A stretch of 64,000 bases of DNA from a virus (IMGVR_UViG_3300033463_000110:1587-65586); one strand, 5' to 3'. Shown: positions 2,896-64,000, counted from the stretch's first letter. Program-made: numbers and translations. Notes: generated from the letters alone by a model not told the origin.

Positions 2896-3645
2896 ATGGA
2901 AACGACAAGCGCTGTCTATCGTGGCGATTGCATTGAGTGGTTGGAGGCGTATGACGGCGCACCAATCAAGCTCATTGTTACCGATCCGCCGTACACTCTT
3001 CCTTCTTGGTCCGGCGGCGGTTTTATGGACGAGTCAAAACGGGATTGGATAAGGGAGATGGACGTGGATAACTTGAGCCGTGGGTATTCCATCGAACGGT
3101 TCGCCGAACTCGCGGAGAAGGTGCAAGGTGGGAAAATCAACGTGTATTTCTTCTGCAACAAACTACAAATCCCCGACTATTTCCGGGCCTATGTAGAGCA
3201 ACGGAAATGCAAGTTTGACATTCTCATGTGGCACAAGACAAACGCCATGCCCACCTTCCACGGGAAGTACCTGACCGATACGGAGTACATCCTCTATTTC
3301 CGAAATGGGGGGGGGTGCAATCCAAAGACCTATGACGATGCAAAGACCTTCTGGCTTGCGGACATCAACCTCGCGGACAAAAAGAAATGGAAACACCCGA
3401 CGATCAAACCGCTTTCTATCGTGCGGACGCTTATACGCAATTCAAGCGAGCCTGGCGACATTGTTGCCGATCCATTCCTCGGAAGTGGCACGACGCGGGT
3501 TGCCGCCTTTTTTGAGGGGCGGAACTTCCTGGGTTGCGAACTCGATGAACGGTGGTTTTCGGTTCAAGAAGAAAGGTTCAAAAAAGAGTGTCACGGGGTG
3601 GAAGTGGTGAACGAGCATACCATTACCCAACAGACTCTCTTTTAG
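2896..3645 (+). CDS. orphan beta-class N6-adenine/N4-cytosine DNA methyltransferase
   Basis: TDPPY near the N-terminus, HPTIKP, and DPFLGSGTT (motif I) near the C-terminus. Confidence 0.9.
   Translation: METTSAVYRGDCIEWLEAYDGAPIKLIVTDPPYTLPSWSGGGFMDESKRDWIREMDVDNLSRGYSIERFAELAEKVQGGKINVYFFCNKLQIPDYFRAYVEQRKCKFDILMWHKTNAMPTFHGKYLTDTEYILYFRNGGGCNPKTYDDAKTFWLADINLADKKKWKHPTIKPLSIVRTLIRNSSEPGDIVADPFLGSGTTRVAAFFEGRNFLGCELDERWFSVQEERFKKECHGVEVVNEHTITQQTLF
3307..3315 (+). repeat. G9 homopolymer inside the beta-class MTase (currently in frame)
   Basis: AAT GGG GGG GGG TGC encodes NGGGC. Confidence 0.9.
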
Positions 3646-46868: not shown

Positions 46869-47424
46869 CTCGCGCATGCGCTCGCCAGCGTGTTACGATA
46901 CGCGTGGGTGCGAGTATTACAAGATATAATATATCTAATCACTTTCTTTTTTTGAGAGTACACTAAGAGATGATAAACCGAGAGAGATAAATCTCTCTCT
47001 GCCAACTTTTCTTTTTTTGTTTTGGACGTTAAAACTACAAAATGCTATATCTTGCAAAAACGCCCTTTTAAGACGCTTTCTCCTCGCAAGACGATAAATC
47101 CCTCGTCCAATGTGAGAAAACGCGCCAAAACGCCTTAAAACGCCCAAAGAAACGAAATCACGACAACGAGTCAAAACCGTCAAGCGAAATGACAACGAAA
47201 TCACGCTTAAAGCATGGTAAATAAAAAAATTTAGTAAGGGGCGAAGGGGACAAAGAAAAAAAAGAAAAACAAAAAGTTTGAGAGGACACACCCCGCCCGT
47301 CGTTCGCCCCTACTTTCCCCCCCGCCCCCCCCGCTCAGCCCGTCGCTCGTGAGTCGTTTTTCGGTCCCGTCCCGGCGCCCGTTCCGTCGGTTACATTATA
47401 CCCTATATTGTAACCTTTTCCGGG

Positions 47425-52337: not shown

Positions 52338-52442
52338 AAGCGAAAAGCAAAGGAGCGGGGGGGGGTATCCCTTCCAGACGGAAAAAGGGGGCGGGGGCCT
52401 GGTAAGCGCCCGCCCCCTCAAAAATCTAAAATTTAATGAGTT

Positions 52443-57030: not shown

Positions 57031-58182
57031 CTATTTGAAAAAATCCGCGCCCGACAATCTCTCCACCGCCTGTTCCTTTGAAATCCGAAGGTATCTTTCA
57101 AATGCAGAAATGCTCTTGTGCCCCGATGCGAACATACAATCCCGGACTGGTACGCCGGAAAGGTAAAGGGCGGTCAATGCGGAGCGCCTGAATGTGTGGC
57201 TCTGCACCATTTCCCAGCGGTAGGTGGGCGATCCGTCCTTCTTCCTCCTGGACTTCGGAAGTTCCACAACGCCGTCTATCCCGGACTCCCTCGCAATCGT
57301 CTTGATATACCGGTTGAAGACAACCTGGTTCACCTCCGGGGCTTTCCCGCCGTTGCGCTCCAGCAGAAGAACAAGACGGGGGGATGCCGGGAGTACAACC
57401 TTGTCGTCCGTCTTTTTCTGCACAAACTCCAGCTTGCCGTCCCGAATGTTGTCCGTGGTCAGACGTGAGTAGTCGGAGAACCTGGCGGCGGAGTAGTAGC
57501 CGACGAGGGCGAGGTCGCGTACCTTCCCGTACAACTCGTTTCGTGGGTTGTATTGCCACAACAGTTCAATCTCGTCGGCGGTCAGCGCGATTGCCTCCGT
57601 CTGTTCCTTCTTTGATTGGAACTCCCGGAAATCCTGGTTGGTGTGGTATTTCAACTTGTACCCTTCGTGCATGACGACCTTGAGCCTCGCGCCGATGTTC
57701 CACCGGTAGTTCACCGAATAACCTTCGTCCTCCATTTTCCTTTGGAGGCGAAACCAATAGGCGGAGTCTATCCCGTCCCAATTCTCTTTCCGGCCCATGA
57801 GCCTTGCCACAACCCTGACGGCAAGGGCGCGTTGCCTCTGCGACGATGACGGCCTGTTTCCCCAACTCTCAAAGTATTCCCAGAAGGTCGGGACGTGGCC
57901 CGCCCGCACCACCTTCGTTTCATCGCCAGTGACGGCGTAGTGGATTGCGTTAAGAACGTCCTCCTCGGTACGGGCGGACACCTCCCTTTCGGTCAAACGG
58001 GAGTGGATGGTAAGCAAATCGCGGAGTACGCGGCGGTCCTTGCATTTCGCCTTGATGGACTTCGCGCCGGAGTCCCACAGGGCTGGGTCGGTCGTGAGTC
58101 CGGTCGCTTTCCGATACTGCTTTCCGTTATGAGTGGCGGAAATTCGGATTGAATTTTTGTGGATTGTGAACGTGTGCTGCAT
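57031..58182 (-). CDS. phage integrase (tyrosine recombinase with arm-binding N-terminus)
   Basis: N-terminal QYRKATGLTTDPALWD, ARFSD, QKKT, HTFRR, SGHKS...ERY. Confidence 0.92.
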   Translation of the reverse strand: MQHTFTIHKNSIRISATHNGKQYRKATGLTTDPALWDSGAKSIKAKCKDRRVLRDLLTIHSRLTEREVSARTEEDVLNAIHYAVTGDETKVVRAGHVPTFWEYFESWGNRPSSSQRQRALAVRVVARLMGRKENWDGIDSAYWFRLQRKMEDEGYSVNYRWNIGARLKVVMHEGYKLKYHTNQDFREFQSKKEQTEAIALTADEIELLWQYNPRNELYGKVRDLALVGYYSAARFSDYSRLTTDNIRDGKLEFVQKKTDDKVVLPASPRLVLLLERNGGKAPEVNQVVFNRYIKTIARESGIDGVVELPKSRRKKDGSPTYRWEMVQSHTFRRSALTALYLSGVPVRDCMFASGHKSISAFERYLRISKEQAVERLSGADFFK

Positions 58183-58743: not shown

Positions 58744-59400
58744 TCAGTCGAGGGTTATCGCCCCGTTCACCAGGGCTATCTGGATGATGTCGTCGGTCGG
58801 CACATCGAAGGGGGCGTACTCCGTGTTGTCCGAAACGCACTTGATGTACCCATCCTTCTCCGACGGATGGACGCGCTTTATCATAATCCCCTGGCTCCGG
58901 GTCAGGATCACATACGCCCGGTTCCATTGTAGAAAATATAGGTTGTCGAGGGCCACCTTCTTGCATGCCACGATGTCCCCGCCGTTGTACTTCGGCACCA
59001 TGCTATCTCCCTTCACGCGGATTAGGAAATCGGAGTTCTTGAACTCGGAAACCGTATAGAAATCTTCTATCCGTTCATCGTCGTATGATGGTAAGCCCGG
59101 ACCGGCGAAAGCCTCCGCCGGGATAAGCGGAAGGGAGTGTGCGGAAGGAGAAGGGGGTGGGGTGGGGGTGGTGCTGGTAAGCATTTCGCCTTCACCGGCC
59201 ATAAGCCATTTGGGAGAAATCCCCAAATCGGAGGAAAGAATAGCGTACAAAAGCGGGTATCCAGGTGCGCTTCTTTTTCCGCCGATAATGTCTTTAAGCG
59301 AGGACACGTCCTTGCCGATCCGTCGGCAGAACTCCGACTTGTTTCCGCCGCAAATCGCGTCTATGGCGCGTTGTAGCCTGTCCTGAATATTGCTGTCCAT
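58744..59400 (-). CDS. CI-like repressor (HTH plus S24 peptidase)
   Basis: NKSEFCRRIG HTH, VKGDSMVP, IMIKRV. Confidence 0.92.
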   Translation of the reverse strand: MDSNIQDRLQRAIDAICGGNKSEFCRRIGKDVSSLKDIIGGKRSAPGYPLLYAILSSDLGISPKWLMAGEGEMLTSTTPTPPPSPSAHSLPLIPAEAFAGPGLPSYDDERIEDFYTVSEFKNSDFLIRVKGDSMVPKYNGGDIVACKKVALDNLYFLQWNRAYVILTRSQGIMIKRVHPSEKDGYIKCVSDNTEYAPFDVPTDDIIQIALVNGAITLD

Positions 59401-60979: not shown

Positions 60980-61159
60980 ATGAAAAAGAAACTACCAACC
61001 ATCCTCGGTGGACTCTGCATCACGGCAATCCTCTTTGCCTGCTGCATCACCGACCAGAACGGCGACCCTTGCGCCGTGAACTATGTCTTACTGGCCCTTG
61101 CCACGGCACTCGGCATCGGCTCTAAAATAACGGAAAAGAAATATGGACAACTTCGCTAA
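60980..61159 (+). CDS. small two-TM protein
   Basis: MKKKLPTILGGLCITAILFA... Confidence 0.65.
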   Translation: MKKKLPTILGGLCITAILFACCITDQNGDPCAVNYVLLALATALGIGSKITEKKYGQLR

Positions 61160-61412
61160 ACAAGCCTTCGAGGACGCGCTCGAACAGCAGACCGAACGGG
61201 AGTTCGAGGCGTGGATGAAATTCTCCGACAAGGACTTCATGGTTACGACAATGACCGTCATCGCGCGGATCGGGTTGGAAAAGGTAAACAACCTTTGCGG
61301 TGCGGTTATCAAGGCCGGACAAGCGGACACCCTCGCAGAGTACGCACACGGCCTTATGATGTTGGCCTTCCATGCCGGGTACAAGGCGAGGAGTGAGGAG
61401 GTCGGGAAATGA
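61143..61412 (+). CDS. hypothetical protein
   Basis: ORF track; overlaps neighbours. Confidence 0.65.
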   Translation: MDNFAKQAFEDALEQQTEREFEAWMKFSDKDFMVTTMTVIARIGLEKVNNLCGAVIKAGQADTLAEYAHGLMMLAFHAGYKARSEEVGK

Positions 61413-62005
61413 CACCACCCAACAAGATCGTCCTGACCGAAGAACAGGTGGCGTGGCTGAAAGACAACTACGCCACCACACTCAATGACGCCATCCGCAA
61501 GCACCTCGGAATTAGTATGCGTACCCTCAACCGCTTCGCAAAGACACTCGGACTTTCCAAAGACCCCGTTACCATCGAAAGACTCCGGTGCGAAAGAATT
61601 GCCGTAGAAGCCCACAAACGCGCCCTCTTGGGGAAGTATAAGGCCCACCCGGAGAACGGCCTTAAAACAAGGTTTAAGACCGGCTACAAGGCGCGGGAAC
61701 GGTTCGGCGAGGAGAAGTTCGCGGAGATGCACCGGAAGACCGTGGAGACAAGGAGAAAGACCTACATCGAGGAACGGGCGAGGGTAACATTCGGACTCCC
61801 GCAACGGACGAGGATGCGGGTGACAAGGCAACCGAGGCAGAAGATATACCAGCGATATTATTTGAAGAAACTCGGCTATATCCTGGACGAAGCCAACAAC
61901 ATCGCCTATTGGACGGAAAGCACGACACGGGCCGTAAAACTGGAGGCGATGCCGAGAAAATATTACTCATTCAAACCCTATCAAGATGGATTGGAAATAC
62001 ACTAA
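61409..62005 (+). CDS. basic HTH-containing hypothetical protein
   Basis: IRKHLGISMRTLNRFAKTLGL. Confidence 0.7.
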   Translation: MTPPNKIVLTEEQVAWLKDNYATTLNDAIRKHLGISMRTLNRFAKTLGLSKDPVTIERLRCERIAVEAHKRALLGKYKAHPENGLKTRFKTGYKARERFGEEKFAEMHRKTVETRRKTYIEERARVTFGLPQRTRMRVTRQPRQKIYQRYYLKKLGYILDEANNIAYWTESTTRAVKLEAMPRKYYSFKPYQDGLEIH

Positions 62006-62687
62006 CGAAAACCCGCTGAAAGTGGTCACGCTCTGTTCAGGCTACGACTCGCAACTCATGGCCATCCGCAACCTCGGAATTCCCTATGAGTGCATCGGCT
62101 GGAGCGAGATTGACAAGTACGCGATCCGCGCCCACGATGCGGTGTTCCCCGAGATTGCAGACCGCAACCTGGGCGACATGACGAAGATTGATTGGAGCAA
62201 GGTTGAGGACTTCGACTTGCTCTTTTATTCCACACCCTGCACGGACTTTTCAAATGCCGGAAAACAGGCCGGTGGCGAGGAAGGCTCCGGCACCCGTTCG
62301 TCCATCCTCTGGTGGACGCGGTATGCAATCCTTGAAAAGAAACCGAAATACCTTATCATGGAGAACGTGAAGGCCCTCGTCTCCAGCAAGTTCATCACCC
62401 TTTTCCGTAAGTGGCTGGACGAGCTTACCTCCTACGGCTACACGAACTTCTGCCAGGTGCTGAACGCGAAGGACTACGGCATCCCGCAGAACCGCGAACG
62501 GATCTTCGTCGTTTCCATCCTCGGCGACGCCTGGTTCTCCTTTCCCCAGCCGCAGGAACTAAAACTCCGGCTCAAGGACATGCTTGAGGACAAGGTGGAC
62601 GAGAAGTACTACTTGCCACAAGACAAGGTAAACCAATTCATCGAACAGTTGGACGATGACAAGAAGGCTCTCATTGATTCCGATTAA
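61986..62687 (+). CDS. C5 cytosine methyltransferase catalytic core (motifs I-VIII only; split gene)
   Basis: TLCSGYDS (I), SEID (II), STPCTDFS (IV), MENV (VI), PQNRERIF (VIII). Stops just after KYYL; motifs IX-X are not in the window. Confidence 0.9.
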   Translation: MDWKYTNENPLKVVTLCSGYDSQLMAIRNLGIPYECIGWSEIDKYAIRAHDAVFPEIADRNLGDMTKIDWSKVEDFDLLFYSTPCTDFSNAGKQAGGEEGSGTRSSILWWTRYAILEKKPKYLIMENVKALVSSKFITLFRKWLDELTSYGYTNFCQVLNAKDYGIPQNRERIFVVSILGDAWFSFPQPQELKLRLKDMLEDKVDEKYYLPQDKVNQFIEQLDDDKKALIDSD

Positions 62688-62873
62688 CACGGATAGGGGG
62701 GGGTATGCAGAACGATTATAGCCGGATATTTCAAGATGGGTTTCACGAATTTCACTCGGGAGTTTCTCGGAAAGAAAGACGGCTTTACAAAGACCGGCGT
62801 ACTTGAAATATATGAAGATTGCATTTGCAAGCCGCAACCCGGAGAAGAACTACGGGAAGGCGGCATGGAGTGA
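62656..62873 (+). other. TRD-like module 1, out of frame at G8 (62696-62703); G9 restores the frame
   Basis: Restored: MTRRLSLIPINTDRGGVCRTIIAGYFKMGFTNF...TGVLEIYE...; paralogous to module 3. Confidence 0.7.
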
Positions 62874-62966
62874 GGTGGCCGGTACGATACTCGCGACCGA
62901 CTACAAGGCCCCCCCCTATGCCTGATTGTCTATGAAAAAGATAGTTCCGATAAACACGACTGCTGA
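62812..62966 (+). other. TRD-like module 2, out of frame at C8 (62909-62916); C9 restores the frame
   Basis: Restored: MKIAFASRNPEKNYGKAAWSEVAGTILATDYKAPPLCLIVYE... Confidence 0.65.
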
Positions 62967-63127
62967 CGGGTGCGCCTTCACCATCGTAACCAGATACGAA
63001 GGCCGGGCCTATCTCAAGTCCATGACTGGGGGGGGGGGGCGGGTATTACCCATGCACGGGAGTAATCGTAATTTATGATGGACGAGAGGATATTGAAAAT
63101 CAAATTTCCGAGGGAGAAACGGAGTGA
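62932..63127 (+). other. TRD-like module 3, out of frame at G12 (63028-63039); G11 restores the frame
   Basis: Restored: MKKIVPINTTADGCAFTIVTRYEG...GGYYPCTGVIVIYD... Confidence 0.7.
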
Positions 63128-63321
63128 CGGGCTTTCCGTCTATCCGTACAACTTCCTTCCGTATGCCCCCCCCCCGGAACTGCGCTTTCGACTCATACCG
63201 GGGGACGGTCGGCTTCGACGTATTCCCTTTTGCGGTCACGACCAGGATCTCCGCCAGCCAGGAGGTTTTCATAAAGGTATATGAGGATATGGACTATCCC
63301 GATGAAGGGCAAGGGGCATGA
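63075..63321 (+). other. TRD-like module 4, out of frame at C10 (63166-63175); C9 restores the frame
   Basis: Restored: ...PYAPPRNCAFDSYRGTVGFDVFPFAVTTRISASQEVFIKVYE... Confidence 0.65.
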
Positions 63322-63439
63322 GGTAACGGCGCGGAACATCGCGAAAGGCGAACCGCACGAACTTTCAAGGCCGCTTACCACGGACGAGTGGGACAACGCA
63401 TTACTGATTGAATATGGCGAGGATTCTCCCGACGCTTGA
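63281..63439 (+). CDS. TRD-like module 5 (in frame, no homopolymer)
   Basis: MRIWTIPMKGKG...LSRPLTTDEWDNALLIEYG... Confidence 0.6.
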   Translation: MRIWTIPMKGKGHEVTARNIAKGEPHELSRPLTTDEWDNALLIEYGEDSPDA

Positions 63440-63614
63440 GGCCATGCTTCTGGACGGCACGATCCCGATTAGGGGGGGGGCATGGATAGACATTTACAAC
63501 CACTCCGCGAACGGCGAGATAGCCGGGACGATCCACACGCGGATAAGTCACGGAAACTATTGGTATGTCACCGAACTTGAAGATACCGCAGGCGGTAAAG
63601 AAAGGCTACATTGA
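63414..63614 (+). CDS. TRD-like module 6 (in frame with G9 at 63472-63480)
   Basis: MARILPTL...IRGGAWIDIYNHSANGEIAGTIHTRISHGNYWYV... Confidence 0.7.
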   Translation: MARILPTLEAMLLDGTIPIRGGAWIDIYNHSANGEIAGTIHTRISHGNYWYVTELEDTAGGKERLH

Positions 63615-63766
63615 CTGCCCCCCCCCAAGGGGTTTTCGACTGGGCCTACCCGAAAAGCAAATTGAGGCGGGCGAGGGTGCAGGGGAACGGGAACATCTGC
63701 CCGGCCATCACCTGCTCGCCGGAACTGTATTACTATGAAGGAGTCGAAGAAAGGATTGATGTTTAA
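63565..63766 (+). other. TRD-like module 7, out of frame at C9 (63618-63626); C8 restores the frame
   Basis: Restored: MSPNLKIPQAVKKGYIDCPPQGVFDWAYPKSKLRRARVQGNGNICPAITCSPELYYYE... Confidence 0.75.
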
Positions 63767-63936
63767 GAGCCAGTTCGTGCCGGTATGGGGGGGGGCTTTA
63801 CTGCGATATCAGCAACAACCCGTCCTTCAAGTCTGGGGCGAAAGGATTGCCTGGTTTGTCCAGGGCAATCAAGGCCGAGATGCACGACGCAGCCGTGTGT
63901 GTAGAATATGAAACAAAGGAAAGGACTGATTTATAA
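63735..63936 (+). other. TRD-like module 8, out of frame at G9 (63787-63795); G8 restores the frame
   Basis: Restored: MKESKKGLMFKSQFVPVWGGLYCDISNNPSFKSG...LSRAIKAEMHDAAVCVEYE... Confidence 0.7.
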
Positions 63937-64000
63937 GGGCCGGTTCTGGCCACTCTGGGGGGGGGGGGGGGGGCAAAAAAAACAATTCCGACAACTTAAA
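63908..64000 (+). other. TRD-like module 9 (3' truncated) with G17 (63957-63973) and A8
   Basis: MKQRKGLIYKGRFWPLWGGG..., N-terminus paralogous to module 8. Phase cannot be judged. Confidence 0.55.

Follow-up and report, generated by a model that had tools for sequence, protein, structure and literature searches.

A 64,000-nucleotide (nt) stretch of the viral contig IMGVR_UViG_3300033463_000110 (the window; bases 1587-65586 of the 65,586-base contig) ends in an array of small open reading frames (ORFs) that follows the head of a C5 cytosine DNA methyltransferase gene. The array runs from this head through 13 small modules of 51-82 codons each to a tail piece carrying methyltransferase motifs IX and X, to which the last module is fused. 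Each module starts one base inside a codon of the module before it, at a TATG in all cases but the first. We think it likely that these TATG junctions are overlapping starts in a polycistronic array of target-recognition domain (TRD) mini-genes, encoding a split, multispecific phage C5 methyltransferase whose TRDs would act in trans and whose modules would be switched without polar effects. The array is cut by the contig end, running past window position 64000 and resuming at contig position 1 (locus L081). Its features are as follows, in window positions unless the contig is named.

61986-62687, plus strand: C5 methyltransferase head with motifs I-VIII, 233 amino acids, ending at TAA 62685-62687 (PF00145, E 5.8e-47, profile positions 2-214 of 324).
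62655-62658, plus strand: core junction GATG, the Asp codon of the head with the ATG of module 1 one base on.
62656-62873, plus strand: module 1 (M1), a TRD mini-gene, with G8 at 62696-62703; OFF, needs +1; its ortholog L001_M1 is 78% identical, has G9 and is in frame.
62812-62966, plus strand: module 2 (M2), TATG at 62811, with C8 at 62909-62916; OFF, needs +1; its ortholog L004_M3 has C9 and is in frame.
62932-63127, plus strand: module 3 (M3), TATG at 62931, with G12 at 63028-63039; OFF, needs -1; current stop TGA at 63076.
63075-63321, plus strand: module 4 (M4), TATG at 63074, with C10 at 63166-63175; OFF, needs -1; current stop TGA at 63282; orthologs L009_M4 (C8) and L002_M4 (C9) are in frame.
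63281-63439, plus strand: module 5 (M5), TATG at 63280, a tract-free, intact ORF of 52 amino acids.
63414-63614, plus strand: module 6 (M6), TATG at 63413, with G9 at 63472-63480; in frame (ON).
63565-63766, plus strand: module 7 (M7), TATG at 63564 (TATGT, giving no third-frame TGA), with C9 at 63618-63626; OFF, needs -1; current stop TGA at 63736.
63735-63936, plus strand: module 8 (M8), TATG at 63734, with G9 at 63787-63795; OFF, needs -1; current stop TGA at 63909; its ortholog L002_M8 is 88% identical and has G7.
63908-64000, plus strand: N-terminal part of module 9 (M9), TATG at 63907, with G17 at 63957-63973; leaves the window and continues from contig position 1.
Contig 1-987 (locus L081), beyond the window: modules 10-13 (M10-M13) and motifs IX-X.

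All 13 junctions share the +1 geometry, 12 as TATG and one, at the head, as GATG; five extra TATG junctions lie beyond the window, at contig 1-560 (L081). At each junction the TAT (GAT at the core junction) is in frame in the preceding module and the ATG of the next module begins at its second base. Our start-calling rule preferred TATG among several in-frame ATGs, although here there was mostly one candidate per junction and never more than three. When the reading frames are restored, the modules end in a hydrophobic strand, then Tyr, then Glu or Asp, as in EIYED, IVYEKD, VIYDGR, KVYED, IEYGE, YWYVTE, YYYEG, VEYET, VEYED, ILYEE, VLYEE and EIYET. The junction pentamer TATGA is accordingly read in three frames, as Tyr-Glu/Asp in frame A, as a start (Met-Lys/Arg) in frame B and as a TGA stop in frame C. 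Restored modules extend 23-62 nt (7-20 codons including the stop) beyond the next ATG, in tails rich in Glu and Asp. Their acidity comes from the Lys/Arg-rich beginning of the following module (ATG AAG AAA..), whose other frame is read as Glu/Asp, and when 30 M6-family members are aligned conservation ends directly after ..YVTE, which argues that the tails are unconstrained by-products rather than functional parts.

Much of this geometry had been described in a sequence-only reading of the same DNA. Its coordinates for the eight TATG junctions from 62811 to 63907 and for the GATG at 62655 are all correct, and the 7-20 mostly acidic codons that it placed past each next ATG are seen. Its statement that M3, M4, M7 and M8 currently end at the junction TGA agrees with the ORFs as they stand (62926-63078, 63075-63284, 63565-63738 and 63735-63911, respectively). 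The one-base-too-long state that it described applies to these four modules and also to M9, but M1, M2, M10 and M12 are each one base short.

The junction geometry is not due to chance. The Tyr codon is TAT at 12 of 12 junctions, whereas the long ORFs of this genome use 313 TAC and 208 TAT codons (40% TAT), giving a chance probability of about 2e-5. TATG accounts for only 13% of in-frame Tyr codons in the genome, and of 149 ORFs outside the array only 3 have, in frame and towards the C terminus, a TATG from which a +1 ORF of 40 codons or more begins.

The same arrangement recurs in related phages. A scan with the head protein returned many phage contigs, at least 18 of which, with head identities of 53-91%, share the stopped head, the array of mini-ORFs and the IX-X piece. 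Automated calling yielded 150 junctions from 18 related loci, 129 of them in the +1 phase: 106 as TATG and 23 on another NAT codon (15 GATG, 6 AATG and 2 CATG). The remaining junctions comprise three ATGA stop/start overlaps and 18 other offsets or short gaps, part of which are caller errors. Phase is therefore far from random across homologous arrays, but it is not strictly invariant, although the sequence-only reading had called the junctions so. What persists is the ATG, which is present at every junction type, even where the overlapped codon specifies Asp, Asn or His or where the junction is gapped or an ATGA. The residue after this Met is Lys or Arg in 83 of the 150 modules. Tyr is near-invariant because, of the four NAT codons able to carry a +1 ATG, it is the sole residue compatible with a strand. 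The last β-strand of a module ends in a hydrophobic residue followed by Glu or Asp, and where this end is spelled TAT GAN, its first five bases also contain ATG A.. when read at +1 and TGA when read at +2. Two tract-free arrays, L014 with 15 modules and L020 with 7, share this junction, mostly as ..YED* overlapping by 11 nt, which indicates that the geometry is a property of the split array rather than of the switches. TATG junctions are also found in the split, nearly tract-free array of a more distant phage, IMGVR_UViG_3300021399_000164 (L163:900-3600).

Homopolymer tracts of 8-17 G or C lie in 11 of the 13 modules. M5 is tract-free and intact, and the frame is likewise kept in M6, M11 and M13; one base would have to be added to M1, M2, M10 and M12 and one removed from M3, M4, M7, M8 and M9, the length of the M9 tract (G17) being unreliable because it lies at the end of the contig. 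Every module has orthologs that can be aligned along both of its halves once the frame is restored; these differ in tract length and state, and some lack a tract. Pooled ratios of non-synonymous to synonymous substitution (dN/dS) are 0.13 upstream of the tract and 0.19 downstream of it, at dS of about 1, in a set that includes pairs OFF in both genomes. Purifying selection on OFF modules and the +1 phase kept in relatives bear out the earlier preference for design over random decay. Pattern scans for near-identical genomes in which tract polymorphism could be read directly found none; the closest relative, L082, has 94% nucleotide identity over M5-M7, and there M6 has G10 and is out of frame, compared with G9 in frame here, and M2 has C10 compared with C8. 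In the alignment of 30 M6-family mini-proteins, most carry Arg-Gly-Gly at the tract position, in unrelated metagenomes; from this alignment, the Gly-Gly (G-tract) site may be old and widespread in the M6 TRD family.

Sequence around the junctions has the composition of translation start sites. Across the 150 junction ATGs, G+C content is 0.30-0.43 from -15 to +19, compared with 0.52-0.60 in the flanks. Such a drop around an ATG is the usual sign of an initiation region, and Bacteroidota, which we take to include the host on the basis of the integrase type, use an AT-rich start signature rather than a Shine-Dalgarno sequence. With its own ATG in an AT-rich stretch of low structure, each module would be exposed to its own tract only: a tract frameshift would truncate that module, while later modules and the essential IX-X piece would still be made. 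Each small gene can therefore probably be switched without silencing the others.

The two OFF frames differ in how they are closed. A tract that lacks one base leads into frame B, which by hand check is closed in all 11 tract-bearing modules here, where 6.5 would be expected open, and none of 2,000 synonymous-codon randomisations equalled this observation. Six of the frame-B stops fall 6-12 nt ahead of the next ATG. Closure of frame B keeps a frameshifted module from fusing with its neighbour. The corresponding count from the relatives (0 of 62) was set aside as biased, because with an open frame B the caller joins a frameshifted module to the next one (about 8-10 such merges were seen by eye). 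Frame C, entered when the tract is one base long, is open to or beyond the junction in 10 of 11 modules here against 5.1 expected, a contrast tempered by a null that is too low, since ordinary genes of this phage show 0.50 observed against 0.40 expected. In the relatives, frame-C openness is not enriched (33 of 62 against 28.7 expected).

These counts qualify one part of the sequence-only reading, which held that an OFF module hands ribosomes to the next start by ATGA coupling and that switching is therefore non-polar. The separate start of each module and the non-polar outcome both remain well supported, as deductions. ATGA as a selected OFF-state terminator was rejected: NATGA is equally common after tract-less modules (31 of 37) and tract-bearing ones (67 of 82), frame C is not enriched in relatives, the tract-free arrays L014 and L020 have the same junction and the four short OFF modules stop elsewhere. 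A stop that overlaps the next start is confined here to the one-base-long OFF state (9 of 11 modules) and occurs at 3 of the 150 junctions in relatives, the ON-state stop lying well past the ATG. Because Tyr-Glu/Asp and Met-Lys/Arg share bases, the TGA is best seen as a consequence of the two, useful here but not selected for hand-over.

The flanking pieces identify the enzyme. The head ORF contains LCSGYDS, TPCTDFS, ENV and QNRER, which are readable as motifs I, IV, VI and VIII in order. Motifs IX-X follow about 1.9 kb downstream in a separate ORF (contig 550-987, L081), in which L081:550-984 matches PF00145 profile positions 269-291. This departs from the usual single-polypeptide form of a C5 methyltransferase, as the head stops and motifs IX-X are encoded in another ORF. 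The fused M13-IX-X product aligns with residues 296-389 of M.MpeI (4DKJ), an alignment that, together with the fused relatives described below, identifies the modules as TRDs. When mapped on M.MpeI, the free TRD ends after the strand that precedes the turn into motif IX, and from this alignment a cut at the turn seems plausible. A Met just ahead of motif IX (MAKIYRIRKLTP; L081:670-690) is conserved in this genome and eight relatives, L005 having MKRYRIRKLT at this position. Here the two other frames are stopped shortly before that Met, one by TAG and one by TAA, both no more than 10 nt upstream, so the IX-X piece could be made even if M13 were out of frame, as it is in L001, L004 and L009.

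Relatives in which the pieces are arranged differently point to action in trans. In L007 the IX-X piece begins at a TATG junction as a stand-alone ORF without a TRD, in L012 it is a stand-alone ORF of 83 amino acids without a TRD, behind an inserted HNH gene, and in L082 the M13-type TRD is a free mini-gene ending ..VVYEE. As neither half of the enzyme carries a TRD in these loci, any working enzyme there must use its TRDs in trans, and on these arrangements we regard the recognition domains as probably doing so. The TRD products, of about 45-80 amino acids, would then combine with the head (motifs I-VIII) and the tail (motifs IX-X). The inserted gene in L012 (8111-8533) encodes an HNH endonuclease of 140 amino acids between the last TRD mini-gene and the IX-X piece and resembles a homing-type insertion at a module junction.

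Searching 1.8 billion representative proteins with M6 gave 50 relatives, about 35 of them stand-alone proteins of 43-110 amino acids. Nine longer relatives were scanned against Pfam, and all have a PF00145 C terminus, two under the curated cut-off. One of these, P0043, matches the multispecific enzymes of rho11s and H2 (31-32% identity, E 7e-14 and 2e-13), and a scan of viral contigs with P0043 returned only another split array. The M6 relatives, being fused in some cases and free in others, show that the same TRD families occur both as a covalent chain and as overlapping cistrons. Searches of single modules against solved structures gave no significant match, and free modules were not recognised in a Pfam scan.

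Several observations weigh against free, separately translated TRDs. Four of the nine longer relatives (P0003, P0033, P0038 and P0043) are in-frame TRD chains, joined as ..VTE-PKII.. with no Met at the join, so that a covalent chain, as in these more distant relatives, is the known working form. When M6 was modelled on its own with AlphaFold, confidence was good in the N-terminal half and weak in the C-terminal half (mean predicted local distance difference test score 73.5); such a half-confident model is compatible with folding on a partner and does not demonstrate it. We found no biochemical precedent for a free TRD of about 50 amino acids serving a C5 methyltransferase. The counts from relatives come from an automated caller that favours TATG starts and merged about 8-10 frameshifted modules with their neighbours. 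Searches of single modules against solved structures gave no significant match, and free modules were not recognised in a Pfam scan.

The sequences themselves show the junction geometry and its conservation, purifying selection, ON/OFF differences between orthologs and cassette boundaries at the junctions; that translation starts at these ATGs, that the parts assemble in trans and that the modules set methylation specificities is what we infer from them. We put at about even chances the fuller proposal that the free polypeptides of 45-80 amino acids are exchangeable specificity subunits of a three-part C5 methyltransferase (head, TRD and tail), Type-I-like and each with its own homopolymer switch, and that the TATGA junction is a device for independent switching and cassette swaps.

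The fused relatives raise the alternative, also named in the sequence-only reading, that the array is read through by recoding, with ribosomes shifting +1 at or near UAU-G, by quadruplet reading or within the overlap, to produce one multispecific polypeptide. TATG read as a four-base codon would join the frames exactly, and P0003, P0038, P0043 and P0033 are homologs concatenated in frame. Yet these fused homologs have no Met at their joins, and in the arrays the conserved element is the ATG rather than a shift site, being retained in GATG, AATG and CATG junctions, in ATGA overlaps and across short gaps. At a programmed +1 frameshift site, a shift-prone codon would be conserved ahead of a slow or stop codon in the A site, and a start would not be needed; here the overlapped codon and the distance to the stop both vary, with overlaps of 8-80 nt that share no slippery motif or stimulator. 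By codon-anticodon rules, tRNA-Tyr is unable to re-pair on AUG. The AT-rich trough at the junctions is typical of start sites, and a search of the window for tRNA genes and Rfam elements, which found none, counts against recoding as well. We consider recoding improbable.

Another alternative accepts the junctions as seams but denies that most modules are expressed, such that only the module adjacent to IX-X is used and the others are silent donors moved by recombination at the junctions. Between the array and its relatives, 34 of 71 homology-block ends fall within 8 nt of a junction ATG, where 10% would be expected (P = 1.6e-15), and relatives differ in module order and content. These observations support the junctions also being seams of module exchange over evolutionary time, and so the recombinational fusion of cassettes at TATG that had been offered as an alternative has support on that time scale and does not conflict with initiation at the same sites. 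A silent bank, however, sits poorly with the rest of the evidence. The sequence shared at the junctions is only TATGA(A/G), too short for a recombinase site or gene conversion; silent copies would need neither an ATG of their own, nor a maintained hypermutable tract, nor a closed frame B; all modules are under purifying selection; and the IX-X pieces of L007 and L012 carry no TRD. It seems to us as improbable as recoding.

That the array is a decaying multispecific methyltransferase gene or a product of homopolymer assembly errors, with ATGs arising by chance, might be suggested by the 9 of 13 modules out of frame in this assembly, by a contig break in G17 and by the many related contigs that end in or just past their arrays, but it is very improbable given the dN/dS values, a +1 phase kept across loci down to 53-60% head identity, junction offsets that do not lie at homopolymers and so cannot be produced by tract errors, and the exclusive use of TAT at the junction Tyr codons against 40% in the genome.

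Overlapping TRD mini-genes, the reading we favour, place the array among known systems while setting it apart from each. The multispecific C5 enzymes of Bacillus phages, M.SPRI, M.Phi3TI, M.Rho11sI and M.H2I (Wilke et al. 1988 and Lange et al. 1991, as they appear among the references of PMC8936443), are likewise phage-borne and combine one catalytic framework with several short tandem TRDs between motifs VIII and IX, of which there are 13 modules here. In the Bacillus phage enzymes, however, the TRDs are contiguous in one polypeptide, whereas here each TRD is its own overlapping cistron offset by +1, the head and tail are separate, the arrays reach about 18 modules and most modules have a G/C homopolymer tract.

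Splitting as such is tolerated in this enzyme family, as natural two-piece C5 enzymes and fragment complementation demonstrate (PMC3404938). M.AquI is divided into an alpha polypeptide with motifs I-VIII and a beta polypeptide with the distal variable region and motifs IX-X, and M.EcoHK31I has motif IX on a small second polypeptide (PMC3404938). As in those enzymes, motifs I-VIII and IX-X here are on different polypeptides that would have to assemble, with the split in the variable region and with a small peptide able to contribute in trans to the small domain. M.AquI and M.EcoHK31I differ in having two subunits and one specificity, compared with up to 14 cistrons here, twelve of them free TRD cistrons between the halves, and in having no counterpart to the TRDs of L007 and L012, which are attached to neither half. 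In Streptococcus phage MM1 1998 (DQ113772; L164), a C5 methyltransferase 'beta subunit' is annotated in another frame inside the 'alpha subunit' gene, a two-polypeptide phage example.

In phasevarions (for example, PMC3936762 and PMC6789123), mod and other methylase genes of Neisseria, Haemophilus, Helicobacter and Campylobacter carry homopolymer or repeat tracts. The array shares with such phase-variable methyltransferases a G/C homopolymer within the coding sequence that sets the frame (11 of 13 modules) and varies in length between close relatives, with ON and OFF alleles among them. Phasevarions switch a whole bacterial enzyme, whereas the array gives a separate tract to each specificity module of a single phage enzyme, and the overlapping starts would keep its effect local. 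Translationally coupled overlapping genes of the ATGA or TAATG type, such as hsdM-hsdS of EcoKI (in a passage of PMC3510504), similarly place the next start within the end of the previous cistron, and ATGA itself is seen here when an OFF module is one base long, as well as at some junctions of relatives. Unlike in such genes, the ON-state stop lies 23-62 nt beyond the ATG, a long overlap, the overlapped codon is nearly always Tyr and up to about 17 such junctions follow one another. The architecture can be read as combining these known kinds, multispecific, split and phase-variable methyltransferases, with trans-acting TRD subunits as the part that would be new. Full-text literature searches turned up no published description of the split-array architecture.

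The array belongs to a temperate phage, with an integrase bearing an arm-binding domain (57031-58182) and an S24 repressor (58744-59400), both on the minus strand. The contig ends overlap by 12 nt (TTCCGACAACTT, with a 3-nt mismatch), indicating a circular or circularly permuted phage genome. The break between them (window 63957-64000; L081:1-20) consists of the G17 tract followed by A8. Many related contigs likewise stop in or shortly past their own arrays, as would be expected if tract heterogeneity breaks assemblies. Upstream, the ATG of the head lies in a GATG (+1) and overlaps by 20 nt an ORF of 198 amino acids without an assigned function (61409-62005), which itself starts at an ATGA overlap with 61143-61412; these GATG and ATGA overlaps of the head and the two upstream ORFs indicate that the block is one tightly coupled operon. 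Other G/C homopolymers outside the array, G9 at 3307, C7 and C8 one base apart at 47317-47332 and G9 at 52357, may switch other phage genes.

At the level of the sequence, each junction is compact triple-frame coding in which five bases hold a structural residue, a start and a stop, and an array has as many as about 17 of them. Should the mini-genes be translated separately and be active in trans, C5 methyltransferases can draw their DNA specificity from small, detachable subunits, and such arrays would constitute a natural toolkit of portable recognition modules for 5-methylcytosine (m5C) methylation. Annotation practice would then change, as ORFs of about 50 amino acids of this kind are routinely missed or labelled as pseudogene debris. 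One phage genome could in principle yield up to 2^11 methylation patterns among its progeny, suggesting that a temperate gut or rumen phage would hedge between hosts with differing, possibly methylation-dependent, restriction by shuffling and toggling its protective methylation.

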